Sequence record: NC_070982.1
DNA length: 64,000 nt
Reading direction: 5' to 3' (one strand)
Origin: Escherichia phage vB_EcoP-101114UKE3
Position numbers and translations under genes: made by a program. A model generated the notes under the pieces. That model was not told the origin of the DNA. It saw only the letters and a list, made by a program, of their open reading frames with translations, and searched no databases. Below are positions 42,886-56,533 of this stretch, in pieces; the first letter of the stretch is position 1, and each line of letters starts with the position of its first letter.

Positions 42886-44919
42886 TTAGTGTTTACCTTT
42901 ACAGTAATCTGAATTACAGATCACCCTGTTTTCTTTGTTCAGTGAGCAAGTTTCTGCATCACGCCACGGAATTTGTTTATAACAGACTGCACAAAACCCA
43001 ATTGAAGTCCAGAGGGCTTTTGTAAACTCAGCTGTTCGTTGTCCATCGTAACTGACAACTGTTTTTCGGAGAGAGGTTGACTTTTCTGGAAATGTCTCCG
43101 CTTTCTCAGCGGGTACCTCCTTTGGGGCATTCTTTGGACCATAAACAGAGATGGCATAAGTATCACCACCACGTTTTTCCAAATACGAATTAGGAACATC
43201 TGCAAGTGTGATGTCCCCTGAACGTTTTGCTGAGCTGACCATTACAATCATACGGCTAAGCATACGTTCATCAACACGAACAGCTACTTCAGGACGACGT
43301 GGGTTGGTTGTGTCTACTGCTTTAGTCCAAATATAACCTTCAGATAGAGTAACATTCTTTACTTTATCTTTGATTTCTTTGGAGCAGATATAACAAACGT
43401 CTTCACCACGAAGTTTACTCATTTCGTTGTCAAACTCGAAATCAGTCTTGACTTCACCACAGATAGCACATACACCCAAAGGCACATCTTCTTCCTCTTC
43501 AGAGGTTTTAGATAACGCTTCGAAGCATTCTGGATGCCAGTATGCCTGATAAGCAAACACAGCCTTACGAGCATCTTTCCAGTCAATGTGCTTATCACAA
43601 CCACCACAGTCACCATGAGAGTGAGATTCCCAGAACTTACGAGTGACTTCTACACCATTCTTAGTGATGAAGGAGTCCTCTGCATCAAAAGGGATATCAT
43701 CATCAAAATCAGCAGTAGTGCTTTGAGGCTCCTTATCTGTAGCATCAACAAACAGCCCTGAAGTTAGTACGAGGCGAATCATACTGTCCACTTCGGAGAT
43801 ACAAGCAATCGTCCCGCGATATACTACCTTTGGGTTTTCAAGAGCCTTAAGATATTCATCTTTGGCTACGTTGTGAACATCCCCTTCGACATACTCTTGA
43901 GCTTTATCATCGTAGATGTAACCAACCATCTTACCACGATCTGTGTTGTTATAAGCATGGAACTCGTGAGGAATAATATCCACACGACCATCACGACGAT
44001 AAGGAAGACCGCGATCGGCAGCCAGTTTGTTCTGGTCTTCAATCGCTTTACGACGACGAATGTCTCCGCTTGTCACGCCGGGCTTGTCGTCTTTGTTTCC
44101 GTAAATGTCGCTTGTGCTGCTGCTTGATTTGTTTGTCTGTTGGTTCTGATAAAGAGAGGAGTTCGAGTAATAGCCGCCCCAGCGACTCGTTACCGTAAAA
44201 ACCGGAAGCGTGTGCTCCACCTCTTGAACCAGAGTCATACGACTGTTAGACACATCAAAGATATACTCAGTTCCCACTTTACATTCGAAGTGGTCATTGA
44301 TATGGTTCTTATGGGACTTAGAACGCTCTAAAATCCACATAAGCATAGCTTCTTCAGAAGCTCCAAACCAATCCAAACCACAGCGGGCTAGGTGGAAAGG
44401 ACGCTCATCATTACGGATAATGTGAAGTGTGTTGTCTTTAGCATCATGCCAAATCAAAGTGAATGCACCATCCAGTTTTTGGATAGTCTCTGCTGCTCCA
44501 ATGGTGTTAATTGAGTGGCAGATGTTTTCACTATCAACTTCGAAACGCTTACTGTCAGGAAGGAGATCTTGATCTAACAGGGTTCCATTATGAACCAGAG
44601 TAATATCCCCGTGAGTAAATGGGTGAGCATTTCGAGCATTGACAGCCCCACGAGTGGCATGTCGGCTGTGACCAACAATCCACGAAGGAGGAACTACGTA
44701 GTTCGTAAGCCCTTTGGTAATATTTGTATATTCTGTCTGGAGCATAAAAGCATAAGAAGGAAGAGCTTCTTTATAAGAGAAGACTTGCTTTTCACCTTTA
44801 CGCTGACCAAACACACCAGTTGAGTGCTGTCCACGGAAAACACCAGCATACAGAAGTTGGTTGAAAATGTCCAAATCTGCTGAGGTCATGTTGCCGCCAG
44901 CTAATACGATACCACAAAT
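42886..44919 (-). CDS. class-II (Ntn) glutamine amidotransferase fused to Cys-rich Zn-ribbon region; proposed AUU start
   Basis: CGIVLAGGN...YAGVFRGQHSTGVFG and HSRHATRGAVNARNAHPF...LVHNGTL match PurF/AsnB-type domain; catalytic Cys lies 9 codons upstream of track ATG (44889), preceded only by ATT then AAA then TAG, with AGGTGG SD 8 nt before ATT. Confidence 0.65.
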   Translation of the reverse strand: MCGIVLAGGNMTSADLDIFNQLLYAGVFRGQHSTGVFGQRKGEKQVFSYKEALPSYAFMLQTEYTNITKGLTNYVVPPSWIVGHSRHATRGAVNARNAHPFTHGDITLVHNGTLLDQDLLPDSKRFEVDSENICHSINTIGAAETIQKLDGAFTLIWHDAKDNTLHIIRNDERPFHLARCGLDWFGASEEAMLMWILERSKSHKNHINDHFECKVGTEYIFDVSNSRMTLVQEVEHTLPVFTVTSRWGGYYSNSSLYQNQQTNKSSSSTSDIYGNKDDKPGVTSGDIRRRKAIEDQNKLAADRGLPYRRDGRVDIIPHEFHAYNNTDRGKMVGYIYDDKAQEYVEGDVHNVAKDEYLKALENPKVVYRGTIACISEVDSMIRLVLTSGLFVDATDKEPQSTTADFDDDIPFDAEDSFITKNGVEVTRKFWESHSHGDCGGCDKHIDWKDARKAVFAYQAYWHPECFEALSKTSEEEEDVPLGVCAICGEVKTDFEFDNEMSKLRGEDVCYICSKEIKDKVKNVTLSEGYIWTKAVDTTNPRRPEVAVRVDERMLSRMIVMVSSAKRSGDITLADVPNSYLEKRGGDTYAISVYGPKNAPKEVPAEKAETFPEKSTSLRKTVVSYDGQRTAEFTKALWTSIGFCAVCYKQIPWRDAETCSLNKENRVICNSDYCKGKH

Positions 44920-44996
44920 TTTCTAATCCACCTGAAGGGTAAACCCTTTCATCTAATTAACCTTTAAATGCGCCCTGTATAAGAGCGCCCGTTGTG

Positions 44997-46097
44997 TTAC
45001 AGCAGTCGTTCTAATTGCATTTCCAGATGGTCTGGAATATAACCAGTGACGTTATCATCACTGCTACCTGATTCACGCATCAATGCAAACATGTGACGAA
45101 TTTCACGAACCGTTGCGATTCGAGTGCTTTCAATCTGAGGGGTGTAGTAGGTCATGATCTCTTCGTAGACACTGTTGGCATTACCGCGCACATATCCCAA
45201 GAAACCATAGAAGTCATTCATATCACGTAAGTTGATAAGGACTTCACCATCAGGGCCAGTCTGTTGCACACGAACACGACCAACCAAAGTTACAGATTGC
45301 TCACGACAGAAGAGAATATCACGAGCAAGACGATACCCTTCAGTGAGATCACTGTCTCTTGGAGTATAGTCTAGGGGTAGATGTTGAATCATAGGAGCGA
45401 AGCGCAGCTCATTCAACTTCTCAACATAAGCTTCATTGTCTAAATCTGCATATTCAACAGCCAGTTTCTTGAGAACCAAGAAGCGGTTGACCAGATTCAG
45501 AAGTTGGCTCTTTTTCCACTTCGGCTCTGAGATACGGAACTCAACAGAACCAAATTGAGATAGAGGCAAAAGATTAAGGGAGGTGTATTTATCCCAGCTA
45601 TTAACAAGAGAGTGGAAGAAAGCTTCCCCGTCTCGGTTGAACGCTGACGAAGCATTCATAACTTGTGCTTGAACGACAGCAAAAGCTGGACAGAAGTTGC
45701 TACGATAGCGATGGTATCCAGAACATTTGAACATCATCTTTTCATAGAACGTCCATCCAAGAATAACTTTCTTAAGGATATTACTATCAGCGTCACGCAT
45801 ATCCATATGAACGTGAGTGGAGCAGCGCCAAGTTCCCTCGGCTCCAGAATCCTGTACTGCTTCACTCAGATTGTTAATAGCACGAAGTAATTCTTCACCG
45901 TTGTAAGGTCGTGCACATACTAATTCACAACCATCACGAAGAGAGCCATCTTCAGTACAAACCCACATATCAGCGTCAATGTCAGTTGTACCTTCGACTT
46001 CTAACTCAATACCAACACCACACTGAAAAGCAATACTTGGATGCGGTTCAGATAAGCGAGGGTTACGGTATCCAAAAACTTGTGCTACGGTTGTCAT
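44997..46097 (-). CDS. amidoligase (glutamine synthetase/GCS-like fold)
   Basis: GIELEVEG ... CSTHVH motif pattern. Confidence 0.5.
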   Translation of the reverse strand: MTTVAQVFGYRNPRLSEPHPSIAFQCGVGIELEVEGTTDIDADMWVCTEDGSLRDGCELVCARPYNGEELLRAINNLSEAVQDSGAEGTWRCSTHVHMDMRDADSNILKKVILGWTFYEKMMFKCSGYHRYRSNFCPAFAVVQAQVMNASSAFNRDGEAFFHSLVNSWDKYTSLNLLPLSQFGSVEFRISEPKWKKSQLLNLVNRFLVLKKLAVEYADLDNEAYVEKLNELRFAPMIQHLPLDYTPRDSDLTEGYRLARDILFCREQSVTLVGRVRVQQTGPDGEVLINLRDMNDFYGFLGYVRGNANSVYEEIMTYYTPQIESTRIATVREIRHMFALMRESGSSDDNVTGYIPDHLEMQLERLL

Positions 46098-53740: not shown

Positions 53741-53816
53741 TGGTGCGCCCTACAGGACTCGAACCTGTAACCAATAGCTTAGAAGGCTACTGCTCTATCC
53801 GTTGAGCTAAGAGCGC
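53741..53816 (-). tRNA. tRNA-Arg(UCU): tRNA-Arg (anticodon UCU), CCA encoded
   Basis: hand-folded cloverleaf: 7-bp acceptor, D arm GCTC/GAGC, anticodon loop CTTCTAA, T arm ACAGG-TTCGAGT-CCTGT, discriminator A plus CCA. Confidence 0.85.
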
Positions 53817-54402: not shown

Positions 54403-54637
54403 TTAACTGAGGAGTACGACAAGGGCCATCCTCATACACACCTACCAGTGTTGGCATGTAAGGCCCAGCGCACTGGTATTCATCGAACAGTTCATTGTAA
54501 GTAGGCTTCCACTTCCAAGCCCACACATAACCCATTCGATCAATGGCAATGTAACGAGTGTTCAGAGGAACCTGCATCATCACATCACCAACTGCTATTA
54601 CTTTCGTAATAACTGCTGCTCGGAAGTTTGTCTTCAT
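54380..54637 (-). CDS. hypothetical protein
   Basis: 85-aa ORF. Confidence 0.35.
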   Translation of the reverse strand: MKTNFRAAVITKVIAVGDVMMQVPLNTRYIAIDRMGYVWAWKWKPTYNELFDEYQCAGPYMPTLVGVYEDGPCRTPQLIELPACA

Positions 54638-54942
54638 GACTTTGCAGCCTCCATCATTTTATTCATTTTAGCCACACCTTTACGGATAAGAGGCATAAAT
54701 TCATCAGCCAGTTCAGTGGATAAAAGTTTAAGCCCGCCTGATTTAATACCGTTCACCGCCTTCTCAACTTCATCCGACAGCAATGTCATTGTTAACCACG
54801 GGGATTTTATTACCACAGTAAAGCCCGGTTCATACCGCGAGTGACTGTAGGTGAACTCTAAATGAGTAACACCGGGCATCTTAGACATTTGAGCACGGAT
54901 ATCTACATTAGGGTTGCAGCGAGTTGAAGATGAAATTGTCAT
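54634..54942 (-). CDS. hypothetical protein
   Basis: 102-aa ORF. Confidence 0.35.
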   Translation of the reverse strand: MTISSSTRCNPNVDIRAQMSKMPGVTHLEFTYSHSRYEPGFTVVIKSPWLTMTLLSDEVEKAVNGIKSGGLKLLSTELADEFMPLIRKGVAKMNKMMEAAKS

Positions 54943-55190
54943 GGCGCTTTAATCTCAATCTGAACGTTGACGACGAATACAGTATGGTTTGCACTGTACA
55001 CTGAAGTGCCTATGATTGGCTTATCATCACTGAGGATTTCAACAGCGTGCTCAAGGTTAATCTTCAGATGAAGACGCCCTGATTCCATGAAGAAATCACC
55101 AGCACGTATCTCACCGAACTTAGCTGGCACACCGATAGAGGGTATCAGTATGTCAGTGCGACCTTTACGGTCAAATAAACGATTGAACAT
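54939..55190 (-). CDS. small protein, five-member paralog family
   Basis: IRAGDFFMESGRLHLKIN. Confidence 0.45.
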   Translation of the reverse strand: MFNRLFDRKGRTDILIPSIGVPAKFGEIRAGDFFMESGRLHLKINLEHAVEILSDDKPIIGTSVYSANHTVFVVNVQIEIKAP

Positions 55191-55199
55191 ATCACCCCC

Positions 55200-55409
55200 T
55201 TATGTAATATCAACCTCAAACCAACAGGTAAGAGCTTTTTCATTGTTGCGTTTTGGCTCAAAGGATTTAACAACCGATAACACTCGGCGCTGTTCTCCAT
55301 CAAACCAGATAGTTTCATCTTTTTCAGGGAGTAGGTTGTGTGCAGCACAAACAATCTCACCTAGTACAACCTGTCTGCCATCTTGCTTACGAACTAAACG
55401 AATGTTCAT
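55200..55409 (-). CDS. small hypothetical protein
   Basis: start MNIRLV after terminator hairpin. Confidence 0.35.
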   Translation of the reverse strand: MNIRLVRKQDGRQVVLGEIVCAAHNLLPEKDETIWFDGEQRRVLSVVKSFEPKRNNEKALTCWFEVDIT

Positions 55410-55452
55410 AACAACCTCTCTTGTTAGTTTAAGTAAGAGTTGTCCCTTAATT

Positions 55453-55483
55453 AAAACAACAAAGGCCACCCCTAAGGGCAGCC
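55453..55483 (-). terminator. intrinsic terminator
   Basis: minus-strand ggcugccc-uuag-ggguggcc with two G-U pairs (C-A on plus strand), then U-rich run. Confidence 0.5.
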
Positions 55484-55489
55484 TCTTAT

Positions 55490-55693
55490 TTAAGCGCAAG
55501 CACTACGCAGTTTGTTATTCAAGAAGCGATCTTCTGCATTATACAGGAATGCATAGAACAACTCTTTTGCTACATCCCGATCGCAATTGAGACATTTAGA
55601 GATCTGTAACAACAAACCATCACGACTATTAGGATGGTCAATTATCGCAAGACGAATAATCTCACGAATACCAATGTCATGCTCAGCCGCCAT
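55490..55693 (-). CDS. small hypothetical protein
   Basis: 67-aa ORF. Confidence 0.35.
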   Translation of the reverse strand: MAAEHDIGIREIIRLAIIDHPNSRDGLLLQISKCLNCDRDVAKELFYAFLYNAEDRFLNNKLRSACA

Positions 55694-56083
55694 AGAACCA
55701 ATCACCCTGACGTTTACGAATGTTAGTTGTCAGACGAAGCATGGCAGACTCAATCTTCAGAGCACCATTTGCTACTGCATCCATACGTTCAGGACGGTTC
55801 ATACGTTTGGTTGTCTTTTTCATAATGTTCTCTCTTTATTGATGGAGGCAGGATTGCCAGTTAATATAAAGGGAAGCCCTACACGTTAAGACTTCCGCTT
55901 GTACAAACTGTCGAGAACTCTCTACCCCTAGATTGTTCTCTATCCCAAACCGATACATACCCCTACATATCGGAAAGCTGTTCGAAAATTAACAGGTTTT
56001 AGTCTATCACCGGATGTTTGAGACAAGTCTCGCCCTAGCGGTGAGCCATATGGCGTTGAGATTATAGTTAATTGAGGAACACC

Positions 56084-56130
56084 CTCACATAGCCCTCTGA
56101 TAAACACAAGGGCTATAAGTCGATGTTACT
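56084..56130 (-). repeat. conserved hairpin element, copy B
   Basis: CACATAGCCCTCTGATAAACACAAGGGCTATAAG directly after stop of 56130..56360. Confidence 0.5.
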
Positions 56131-56360
56131 TAACCATTAATATGAGTTACTTGAACATCAGGTACAGGGATAACTTCATGGTCTTCCTGTAATTGGAACA
56201 GTGTCCCCTGACTAAGACCAACCACACGATGCATATCGTTAAGTCTAGTGTCTGTCTTTAGGTAGACATTTTCAGAGTTAGTTGGTAAACGGAACACATC
56301 GCCCGGACGTAACTCACTGAGCTTTTTAGTAACAACTACAGAGAAGAGATTAATTTTCAT
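56130..56360 (-). CDS. small protein, five-member paralog family
   Basis: LRPGDVFRLPTNSENVYLKT ... VVGLSQGTLFQLQED. Confidence 0.45.
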   Translation of the reverse strand: MKINLFSVVVTKKLSELRPGDVFRLPTNSENVYLKTDTRLNDMHRVVGLSQGTLFQLQEDHEVIPVPDVQVTHING

Positions 56361-56533
56361 TTGATTAACACCAAATCAGTACGACGTTCGAAGGAAGGGG
56401 AGGATTCACCATTCCACTGAACAAGATAACAGAGAACACCATCAATCGTTGTTCTCCGACGAATAACACCTGTAACAGTTCCACCAACAAGACGAACGGT
56501 GTCGCCAACGGTAAATTTAACCTTTGAGCGCAT
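56357..56533 (-). CDS. small hypothetical protein
   Basis: start MRSKVKF with AGGAG SD. Confidence 0.35.
   Translation of the reverse strand: MRSKVKFTVGDTVRLVGGTVTGVIRRRTTIDGVLCYLVQWNGESSPSFERRTDLVLIK

Follow-up and report, generated by a model that had tools for sequence, protein, structure and literature searches.

An AUU codon as the probable start of a class-II glutamine amidotransferase gene in a phiEco32-like coliphage

The locus and its initiation region

We have analyzed a stretch of 64,000 nucleotides from Escherichia phage vB_EcoP-101114UKE3 (NC_070982.1), here termed the window, that derives from a phiEco32-like coliphage (Gordonclarkvirinae). It contains the following features, given in the direction of transcription.

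44997..46097, minus strand: upstream gene of the Amidoligase_2 family (Pfam; annotations of Bas87 and SU7), with its stop 77 nt before the ATT
44970..44988, minus strand: terminator-like hairpin directly after the amidoligase stop codon (folding and alignment)
44912..44968, minus strand: invariant 57-nt leader block comprising TTAAAGGTTAATTAG, mini-ORF, hairpin, Shine-Dalgarno (SD) sequence, ATT and TGTGG (comparison of genera and a match in 95/95 records)
44923..44952, minus strand: in-frame nine-codon mini-ORF MKGFTLQVD*, which begins at ATG 44952, contains a GTG and ends in TAG 3 nt before the ATT
44933..44951, minus strand: hairpin UGAA(A)GGG-UUUA-CCCUUCA, which abuts the SD at the 3' end and has one A in common with it (RNA folding)
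44928..44933, minus strand: SD sequence AGGTGG, 8 nt 5' of the ATT (from sequence; invariant in relatives)
44917..44919, minus strand: ATT, the proposed initiation codon AUU (read directly; kept in relatives)
44914..44916, minus strand: TGT, codon of the putative Cys1 nucleophile of an Ntn amidotransferase (Cys invariant in alignments A1 and A2)
44887..44889, minus strand: ATG, Met10 of the proposed mature protein, the start in many records and unconserved (annotations and alignment)
42886..44919, minus strand: coding sequence of 677 codons, counting the initiator and running from ATT to stop, for a protein with a class-II (Ntn) glutamine amidotransferase domain (ORF list, Pfam, PHROG 4736, AF2 and Foldseek)

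On the minus strand GAAAGGGTTTACCCTTC leads into the SD AGGTGG (44933-44928), followed by ATTAGAAA (44927-44920), ATT (44919-44917) and TGT (44916-44914). The codons then run GGT ATC GTA TTA GCT GGC GGC AAC ATG (44889-44887) ACC TCA, and reading through the frame of the ATT gives *-K-I-C-G-I-V-L-A-G-G-N-M-T-S. A preliminary description of this DNA had placed the SD 8 nt from the ATT, and that spacing is what we read. The in-frame TAG (44925-44923) lies inside ATTAGAAA, two codons 5' of the ATT, and since only AAA and ATT stand between it and the Cys codon there is no canonical start available in that interval. To this extent the earlier claim that no ATG, GTG or TTG precedes the Cys codon holds; 5' of the TAG, however, both an ATG and a GTG are present. 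The gap between CGIVLAGGN and YAGVFRGQHSTGV, previously given as 9 residues, is in fact 13. Pairing of AGGTGG with the anti-SD has a duplex energy of -5.9 kcal/mol, which is only moderate. The arrangement is infC-like, with a near-cognate AUH codon at the proper distance from the SD and no canonical in-frame alternative.

The terminator-like hairpin has a stem with compensatory changes between genera (GCGCUC/GGGCGC vs GUGCCUC/GGGGCAC), and a stretch overlapping it carries a 'terminator' feature in the record of phage 4E8. The amidotransferase gene belongs to a conserved cluster of COOH-NH2 ligase, amidoligase, GATase and ATP-grasp genes. A phage neighborhood of amidoligase, ATP-grasp, GAT-II, COOH-NH2-ligase and GGACT genes was reportedly described by Iyer et al. 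in 2009, and this neighborhood is common to the window, Bas87, SU7, UFV-P2 and a homolog, L016. It is also known from LUZ24-like phages (PMC3890496). In the papers on this cluster that we consulted we found no report on the start codons of its genes.

A predicted Ntn glutaminase domain

The GATase domain occupies approximately 44197-44916 on the minus strand and matches Pfam GATase_6/7/4, and the C-terminal two thirds of the protein contain three CxxC...CxxC zinc-ribbon-like modules. PHROG 4736 covers residues 1-513, corresponding to profile positions 2-497 of 498. Both in that profile and in the NCBIfam GlmS model the Cys is position 2, right after the Met, and 44 of 51 database homologs have an MCG N-terminus. 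In the window the Cys codon directly follows the ATT, and on sequence the Cys would thus be residue 1 as in the Ntn class. It is invariant in an alignment of 38 homologs, together with R29-G30, H84-x-R86, H110-N111-G112 and D129-S130, which match the RG, GHTRWAT, HNG and TDTE motifs of GlmS. Equivalents of the glutamine-binding and oxyanion residues Arg26, Arg73, Asn98-Gly99 and Asp123 of GlmS are all found. When aligned with a GlmS-type sequence using hhalign, the family profile, with the pattern MCGIV...RGxxSTG...GH(S/T)RxAT...HNG...(V/T)D(S/T)E, matches from column 1 (99.5%, E = 3.6e-23), its Cys falling on that of MCGIV, and this bears out the likeness to PurF and GlmS N-termini proposed previously.

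The AF2 model (pLDDT 94.3, pTM 0.92) is predicted to have the four-layer alpha-beta-beta-alpha Ntn fold. Its best Foldseek match in the PDB is the glutaminase domain of GlmS (1xff; E = 2.7e-14, TM 0.69), followed by GFAT-1, PurF, AsnS and EgtC. Profiles, model and fold search thus agree in placing the Cys at the predicted nucleophile position of a class-II amidotransferase.

The protein is not GlmS, because SIS, PRTase and synthetase domains are missing and its scores fall far below the family cut-offs. There is no Pfam match in it to the two SIS domains expected of GlmS/GFAT, and the C-terminus carries the CxxC repeats instead; among the NCBIfam models, PRK00331 gives it 40.5 bits and TIGR01135 33.7, where the cut-offs are 381 and 418. 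Many records name the product 'L-glutamine-D-fructose-6-phosphate aminotransferase' or GlmS, which is misleading. According to the main text of the paper on phage SU10 the orthologous protein was detected by mass spectrometry and is therefore made; that text gives no N-terminal peptide (PMC4281155).

Conservation of the leader and of the codons from Cys1

The 57-nt leader, with SD and ATT inside it, is 100% identical in 95/95 related phage records, so that the check on conservation of these two elements suggested in the preliminary description comes out clearly in their favor. Overall the window is 70-73% identical to Kuravirus and Nieuwekanaalvirus. The longest exact run that it shares with either is the leader block, at 57-68 nt, and the next longest is 26-37 nt. 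Direct reading showed the ATT in 12 distinct sequences from three genera of Gordonclarkvirinae, in 7 contigs from metagenomes and in 5 from IMG/VR; all Gordonclarkvirinae-like sequences and contigs examined carry it. In one homolog (L106) Cys1 is encoded by the synonymous TGC. More distant homologs do have ATG-TGT, the situation in which the ATT had been suspected of being a sequence error, yet the 95 identical leaders and the 12 environmental contigs exclude that explanation.

This conservation exceeds what an SD and a start codon need. A promoter for the phage sigma factor (gp36) does not account for it, as the published motif tAATGTATAtA is absent from the leader; nor was a sigma-70-like site found there. 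The motifs of the leader occur only once within the window. A known RNA family or riboswitch was rejected, Rfam matches being at chance level only. The SD-adjacent hairpin has a folding energy of -6.1 kcal/mol, and the 131-nt region overall folds no better than shuffled sequences (z = -0.59).

An ATT start is already known as an annotation. It is used for phi32_83 of the type phage phiEco32, for SU10_085 and for Bas87_0079, Bas90_0080 and Bas93_0070. These orthologs have the same gene, leader and ATT as the window, and the curators of the phiEco32, SU10 and BASEL genomes arrived at the same start; the evidence from them is annotation only. In the SU10 and BASEL papers we found no discussion of this codon. 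Most other records have a truncated start, including those identical to the window, where IME267 and HC-25922 begin at the ATG and the leader of MLP3 is unannotated. SU7, ECBP2 and EK010 also begin at the ATG, so this was indeed, as had been said, the annotated start in GenBank and RefSeq. In the records of EP335, KBNP1711 and O18-011 the start is placed 26-57 codons downstream.

Such starts, which most automatic annotations choose, would be correct if the Cys region were untranslated, with the N-terminal motif a decaying remnant and the protein beginning at ATG 44889 or, in relatives, further downstream. The ATG is not conserved, however. Most relatives lacking it have NLSS or SLSS in place of NMTS, and Kuravirus and Nieuwekanaalvirus have CTG or CTC at this codon. 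The first in-frame canonical start past Cys1 is at codon 113 in phiEco32, 45 in KBNP1711 and 26 in O18-011, and starting there would cost as many as 112 residues of a domain whose fold is predicted with confidence and which has kept all its catalytic residues. Moreover, purifying selection acts on the codons from Cys1 onward. The ratio pN/pS is 0.21-0.25 for codons 1-56 and, at 0.15-0.16, similar for the remaining domain, and within codons 1-9 there are 3 synonymous changes vs 0-1 non-synonymous. We regard an untranslated Cys as the least probable reading of the locus.

A second route to an N-terminal Cys is a propeptide, as some Ntn amidotransferases have; processing of B. subtilis PurF is an example. 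Here translation would begin at the ATG of the mini-ORF, which is in frame with the enzyme, and a 12-residue propeptide would be removed autocatalytically. An open in-frame extension 5' of the Cys is precluded by the TAG two codons upstream, and because of this stop a propeptide would need read-through. Natural UAG read-through is low in E. coli, and amber suppression was rejected in that the sole tRNA found in the window is Arg-TCT, with no suppressor. One homolog, L016, does have an ATG in frame, 11 codons 5' with no stop between, as a propeptide would require, but this ATG lacks an SD whereas a perfect AGGAGG stands 8 nt before the ATT. In L080 (stop 5 codons 5'), L052, L068 and L077 there is no canonical start between the stop and the ATT or ATC. 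A processed propeptide is thus very improbable.

AUU initiation and comparison with known systems

Among the matches listed from IMG/VR and from a scan of metagenome contigs with alignment A2, the codon right before Cys1 is ATT or ATC in at least seven separate lineages of the family, TTG once and GTG never. The AUH codon has a strong SD 5-8 nt 5' in L012, L014, L016, L052, L065, L068, L077, L080 and L122. In at least four lineages (L052, L068, L077 and L080) it is the sole option because an in-frame stop is followed by no canonical start, and inside the clade of L065, L068 and L077 ATT and ATC interchange. An ATT clade occurs in a second phage GATase family as well; over both families AUH outnumbers GTG and TTG by approximately 26 to 1 among the non-ATG starts of the matches listed. 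In these enzymes the true start is visible because the obligatory Cys1 pins its position.

A stable hairpin adjacent to the SD is found in 9/10 distinct AUH leaders, against 7/62 ATG leaders among the matches listed. The hairpins are analogous in position to that of the window and unrelated to it in sequence. A stratified control and shuffle z-scores ruled out long intergenic spacers or GC content as the source of the association, and it persists with the SD fixed to GGAGG. The hairpin does not accompany every ATT-Cys1, as the ATT clade of the second family has none. What is new here is this recurrence of ATT or ATC before Cys1 across lineages, usually with a small hairpin beside the SD.

The AUU might alternatively be used mainly by termination and reinitiation, whereby ribosomes translating the mini-ORF would melt the hairpin, stop at UAG and restart at the AUU 3 nt on, coupling expression of the two. 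The mini-ORF is invariant, its ATG (44952) has AAAGG 8 nt 5', and ribosomes are known to reinitiate in E. coli where stop and start lie close together (PMC2268962). Two other lineages, L014 and L080, have a long ORF that ends 4 nt 5' of the ATT. Across lineages, however, termination-reinitiation is unsupported as a general mechanism. A 5' ORF of 30 codons or more ends near the start in 2/10 AUH leaders vs 36/62 ATG leaders, none of the other AUH leaders has a mini-ORF resembling that of the window, and the leader of a fairly close ATT relative (L012, 66% identity) contains no ATG. In a leader that does not vary, the mini-ORF cannot be judged conserved apart from the hairpin and SD that overlap it. 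We consider it unlikely that reinitiation is the main mode of use, and the conserved in-frame mini-ORF, stopping as close to the ATT as it does, leaves room for a contribution from it.

Every comparative test put forward with the original proposal, of an AUU start that exposes Cys1, came out in its favor, and from the comparisons of sequence and predicted fold we infer that initiation at AUU followed by removal of Met is very probable. The AUU (44919-44917) would be read by ordinary SD-directed initiation with fMet-tRNAfMet, after which deformylase and methionine aminopeptidase would take off the Met. This removal is possible because a Cys at the second position is permitted, E. coli PurF and GlmS being examples. 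It would expose Cys1 as the N-terminal nucleophile of the class-II domain, and the ATG at 44889 would be an incidental internal Met codon. The initiation region, with its hairpin abutting a good SD, its 8-nt A-rich spacer and AUU, probably sets the rate of initiation, and may possibly regulate it. On the AUU reading most public records, RefSeq included, hold a protein truncated at its N-terminus and lacking the nucleophile, and the correct start is the ATT.

AUU or AUC seems to have arisen or persisted in at least seven lineages, each with a strong SD and most with an SD-adjacent hairpin. We suggest tentatively, as a possibility rather than an expectation, that AUH starts with SD-abutting hairpins are a repeatedly evolved module of translational control, for example IF3-sensitive or coaxially stacked, and more broadly that such starts are commoner in phage genes than annotated. 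The gene offers a natural and easily cloned system for probing non-canonical initiation and the possible use of IF3 discrimination by phages, and families with an obligatory residue-1 nucleophile could provide internal standards against which to judge real start-codon usage in viral metagenomes.

The phage protein shares the Ntn glutaminase fold, as predicted, and the catalytic residues with E. coli PurF and GlmS, which begin MCGIVG... and use Cys1 as nucleophile once the Met is gone. The genes of these two, unlike that of the phage, start at AUG, and the phage protein lacks their additional domains. Few AUU starts have been well studied in E. coli, the classical AUU-initiated genes being infC, encoding IF3, and pcnB. 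Both have an AUU start with an SD, and as in the phage gene the AUU (or AUC) is conserved rather than accidental. To our knowledge an association with an SD-abutting hairpin has not been described for either. AUU is normally a poor initiator, at approximately 5% of AUG in one reported case, and IF3 discriminates against it; IF3 treats AUU and AUC as non-canonical, making such starts potentially IF3-sensitive (PMC5499595). The phage gene differs from infC and pcnB in being an early phage gene, and what makes its start recognizable, the mandatory Cys1, has nothing to do with infC.

The catalytic cysteine and the domains of the protein

Within the protein encoded at 42886..44919 (minus strand) Pfam matches GATase_6, GATase_7 and GATase_4, and with the cysteine as residue 1 positions 2 to 497 of the 498 in the PHROG 4736 profile are aligned. 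The match to the NCBIfam GlmS model, with the same numbering, begins at profile position 2. The N-terminus is MCG in 44 of the 51 database homologs, and residues C2, G3, R29, G30, H84, R86, N111, G112 and D129 are invariant in an alignment of 38 sequences; the invariant residues of the phage protein line up with the GlmS motifs RG, GHTRWAT, HNG and TDTE. For residues 1-242 AlphaFold gives a model with a pLDDT of 94, whose best structural matches are the GlmS glutaminase domain, GFAT, PurF, AsnS and EgtC. Judged by sequence and predicted structure, the cysteine is the Ntn nucleophile. Profiles, MCG starts and predicted fold are in accord with the PurF/GlmS-type N-terminus proposed in the preliminary description. 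The two parts of the motif given there are separated by 13 residues, not nine.

Identity as GlmS itself is ruled out, as Pfam finds no SIS domains in the protein and it scores ~40 bits against NCBIfam GlmS cut-offs of ~400. Without SIS domains, calling the product 'L-glutamine-D-fructose-6-phosphate aminotransferase' claims too much. The C-terminal two thirds (42886-44196, minus strand) contains three CxxC...CxxC zinc-ribbon-like modules, with a weak LIM match (E=0.007). Shorter homologs of ~400 amino acids have one such module, and most members of the family are ~270 residues shorter than this protein.

The phage belongs to the phiEco32-like podophages of E. coli (Gordonclarkvirinae) and is 100% identical to IME267, MLP3 and others over the leader region. 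This is an early-region gene, clustered with others in the order COOH-NH2 ligase, hypothetical gene, Amidoligase_2, amidotransferase, two small ORFs, ATP-grasp enzyme; LUZ24-like phages are known to have this cluster too (PMC3890496). The sole tRNA in the window is tRNA-Arg (anticodon TCT; 53741-53816, minus strand).

Probable initiation at AUU

Elements of the leader, with the Shine-Dalgarno sequence as SD
44999-44997, minus: TAA stop codon of the amidoligase gene (sequence)
44988-44970, minus: terminator-like hairpin after that stop (fold, alignment)
44952-44923, minus: mini-ORF MKGFTLQVD*, nine codons, in frame with the amidotransferase gene; invariant, overlapping hairpin and SD
44933-44928, minus: SD AGGTGG, 8-nt spacer to ATT (sequence)
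44925-44923, minus: in-frame TAG (sequence)
44919-44917, minus: proposed start ATT (sequence)
44916-44914, minus: TGT, Cys1 codon (sequence)
44889-44887, minus: downstream ATG used in many annotations (sequence)
Leader, minus: TTAAAGGTTAATTAG ATG AAA GGG TTT ACC CTT CAG GTG GAT TAG AAA ATT TGT GGT ATC GTA TTA GCT GGC GGC AAC ATG ACC...

The minus-strand sequence bears out the layout of SD, spacer, ATT, TGT, upstream TAG and downstream ATG described previously, to which the mini-ORF has to be added. AAA and ATT are the sole codons separating TAG from the cysteine codon, and the predicted leader hairpin is GAA(A)GGG-UUUA-CCCUUC. The terminator-like hairpin lacks a clear U-tract; its stem changes between genera (GCGCUC/GGGCGC versus GUGCCUC/GGGGCAC) are compensatory, indicating a selected structure.

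A 57-nt block including ATT (44968-44912, minus strand) is 100% identical in 95 of 95 related phage records, so that both ATT and SD are kept in homologous phages. We read it directly in 12 distinct sequences from Suseptimavirus, Nieuwekanaalvirus and Kuravirus, and it is present on five IMG/VR and seven metagenome contigs. Against genomes 70-73% identical overall it forms the longest exact run (57-68 nt), the next longest being 26-37 nt. By contrast the ATG at 44889 is confined to Suseptimavirus, its place being taken by N-L-S-S in Kuravirus and S-L-S-S in Nieuwekanaalvirus, and the first in-frame canonical start past Cys1 is codon 113 in phiEco32, 45 in KBNP1711 and 26 in O18-011. Codons 1-9 have three synonymous and 0-1 non-synonymous differences, and pN/pS is 0.21-0.25 for codons 1-56 versus 0.15-0.16 in the remainder of the domain, showing that the region from Cys1 onward is translated. 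The SU10 ortholog was found by mass spectrometry among early proteins (PMC4281155).

Homologs with a canonical start directly before the cysteine do exist (such as P0001/L013, 71% identity; AAAGGA-N7-ATG-TGT), which the preliminary description had taken as a possible sign of sequence error, but with ATT invariant in about a hundred independent genomes such an error is ruled out. The observation is confirmed, and the comparative evidence of conservation, selection, a non-conserved ATG and the lack of any codon but AAA and ATT after TAG is strong, making it highly probable that AUU initiation places the cysteine at residue 1.

The mini-ORF offers two other routes. Translation might begin there, read through TAG and be followed by propeptide removal to expose Cys1. 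This is unlikely: the window has no suppressor tRNA, homologous loci L052, L068, L077 and L080 have no canonical start between the in-frame stop and ATT/ATC, and in L016 the upstream in-frame ATG has no SD whereas a perfect AGGAGG lies 8 nt before ATT. Alternatively, ribosomes terminating on the mini-ORF could reinitiate at AUU. This is conceivable for this phage but not as a general mechanism, since a substantial ORF ends beside the start in 2/10 leaders with AUU or AUC (AUH) starts versus 36/62 ATG leaders.

For direct initiation at AUU, the SD would anchor the 30S subunit, and the hairpin beside it may give a longer dwell time on a weak codon by stacking on the SD helix or insulating it. 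AUU would be decoded by fMet-tRNA, and Met removal would then expose Cys1.

AUH starts in two families and predicted hairpins in one

Among the best 80 of 280 IMG/VR loci of this family, Cys1 is preceded by ATG in 69 (counting L038, where TGC separates ATG from the aligned cysteine), ATT in eight, ATC in two, TTG in one and GTG in none. With metagenomic relatives (L012, L014/15, L016/17 and L122) added, AUH starts fall into at least six separate clades of the NJ tree, each beside ATG sister lineages, plus L122 outside the tree. ATT and ATC interchange within one clade, and the close relatives L012 (ATT) and L110 (ATG) have homologous leaders. The SDs of AUH leaders are strong, and many read AGGAGG with a spacing of exactly 8 nt. 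The independent leaders L014, L016, L068 and L080 share the string (A)GGAGGATA(G/A) before ATT at fixed 8-nt spacing; this may be SD plus A-rich spacer, or more, such as a putative protein-binding site.

A stable hairpin is predicted at -40 to -13 in 9/10 distinct AUH leaders versus 7/62 ATG leaders (Fisher p = 1.2e-6), for lineages that are few and partly non-independent, the IMG/VR loci covered being the best 80 of 280. In 6-7 of the nine only 0-1 nt separates the 3' end of the hairpin from the SD. Mean predicted MFE is -6.4 versus -1.4 kcal/mol and shuffle z -2.65 versus -0.09. The association holds among leaders whose non-coding spacer is 28 nt or longer (-6.25 versus -1.37, p = 3.5e-5), and in two new scans with SD fixed to GGAGG, where 10/14 ATT leaders and, among the ATG matches listed, 4/26 ATG leaders have a hairpin (p = 7e-4). 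Hairpin sequences are unrelated between lineages (GCUGC-AAAC-GCAGC, GACGG-AUUA-CCGUC, GCACCU-GUA-AGGUGC), as expected under selection on structure.

The ATT scan also found an unrelated-looking class-II family, a 226-aa stand-alone GATase_6 protein beginning CGIFG...KKRGTFSYGG, on IMG/VR marine phage contigs (L351-L375 and L128-L229, outside the window). One clade, with 16 distinct leaders, has AGGAGG-N7-8-ATT-TGY directly 3' of a TTGAAT-N17-TATAAT promoter-like element. None of these 16 has a hairpin, so an SD-adjacent hairpin is not obligatory. In 45 more distant relatives the start is ATG, mostly 7-9 nt past TATAAT and without SD, so that these genes look leaderless. Both hairpin leaders and second-family ATT leaders would leave little or no free single-stranded RNA 5' of the SD.

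Annotation and known initiation systems

The CDS is already annotated from ATT in phiEco32 (phi32_83; 54493..56523, complement), SU10 (SU10_085), Bas87, Bas90 and Bas93. The BASEL authors report manual refinement of annotation, and we found no discussion of the start codon in the text of the SU10 (PMC4281155) and BASEL papers. Elsewhere ATG is annotated, in window-identical IME267 and HC-25922 and in SU7, ECBP2 and EK010; window-identical MLP3 has no annotated feature in the leader, and the CDS starts of EP335, KBNP1711 and O18-011 lie 26-57 codons downstream. Internal ATG/GTG starts from codon 10 to ~58 deprive the deposited proteins of NC_070979 (EP335), NC_023593 (KBNP1711), NC_070985 (O18-011), NC_070983 (IME267), NC_018859 (ECBP2) and MZ342906 (SU7) of Cys1. 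Gene callers have also pushed ATT-start homologs L012 (1711-1722), L014 and L016 upstream to GTG/ATG (MTKI-C, ...KPI-C, ...STI-C), so that protein databases contain spuriously extended N-termini (P0004, P0012, P0017). The ATT start is thus already annotated in the type phage, yet widely mis-annotated elsewhere.

As far as we could find, the family-wide recurrence of AUH starts and the SD-adjacent hairpin are undescribed, and they are worth an experiment. IF3 treats GUG and UUG as canonical and rejects AUU and AUC (PMC5499595). That AUH outnumbers GTG/TTG by 26:1 therefore hints at putative selection for initiation that is sensitive to IF3 or regulated in some other way, and not just for reduced output.
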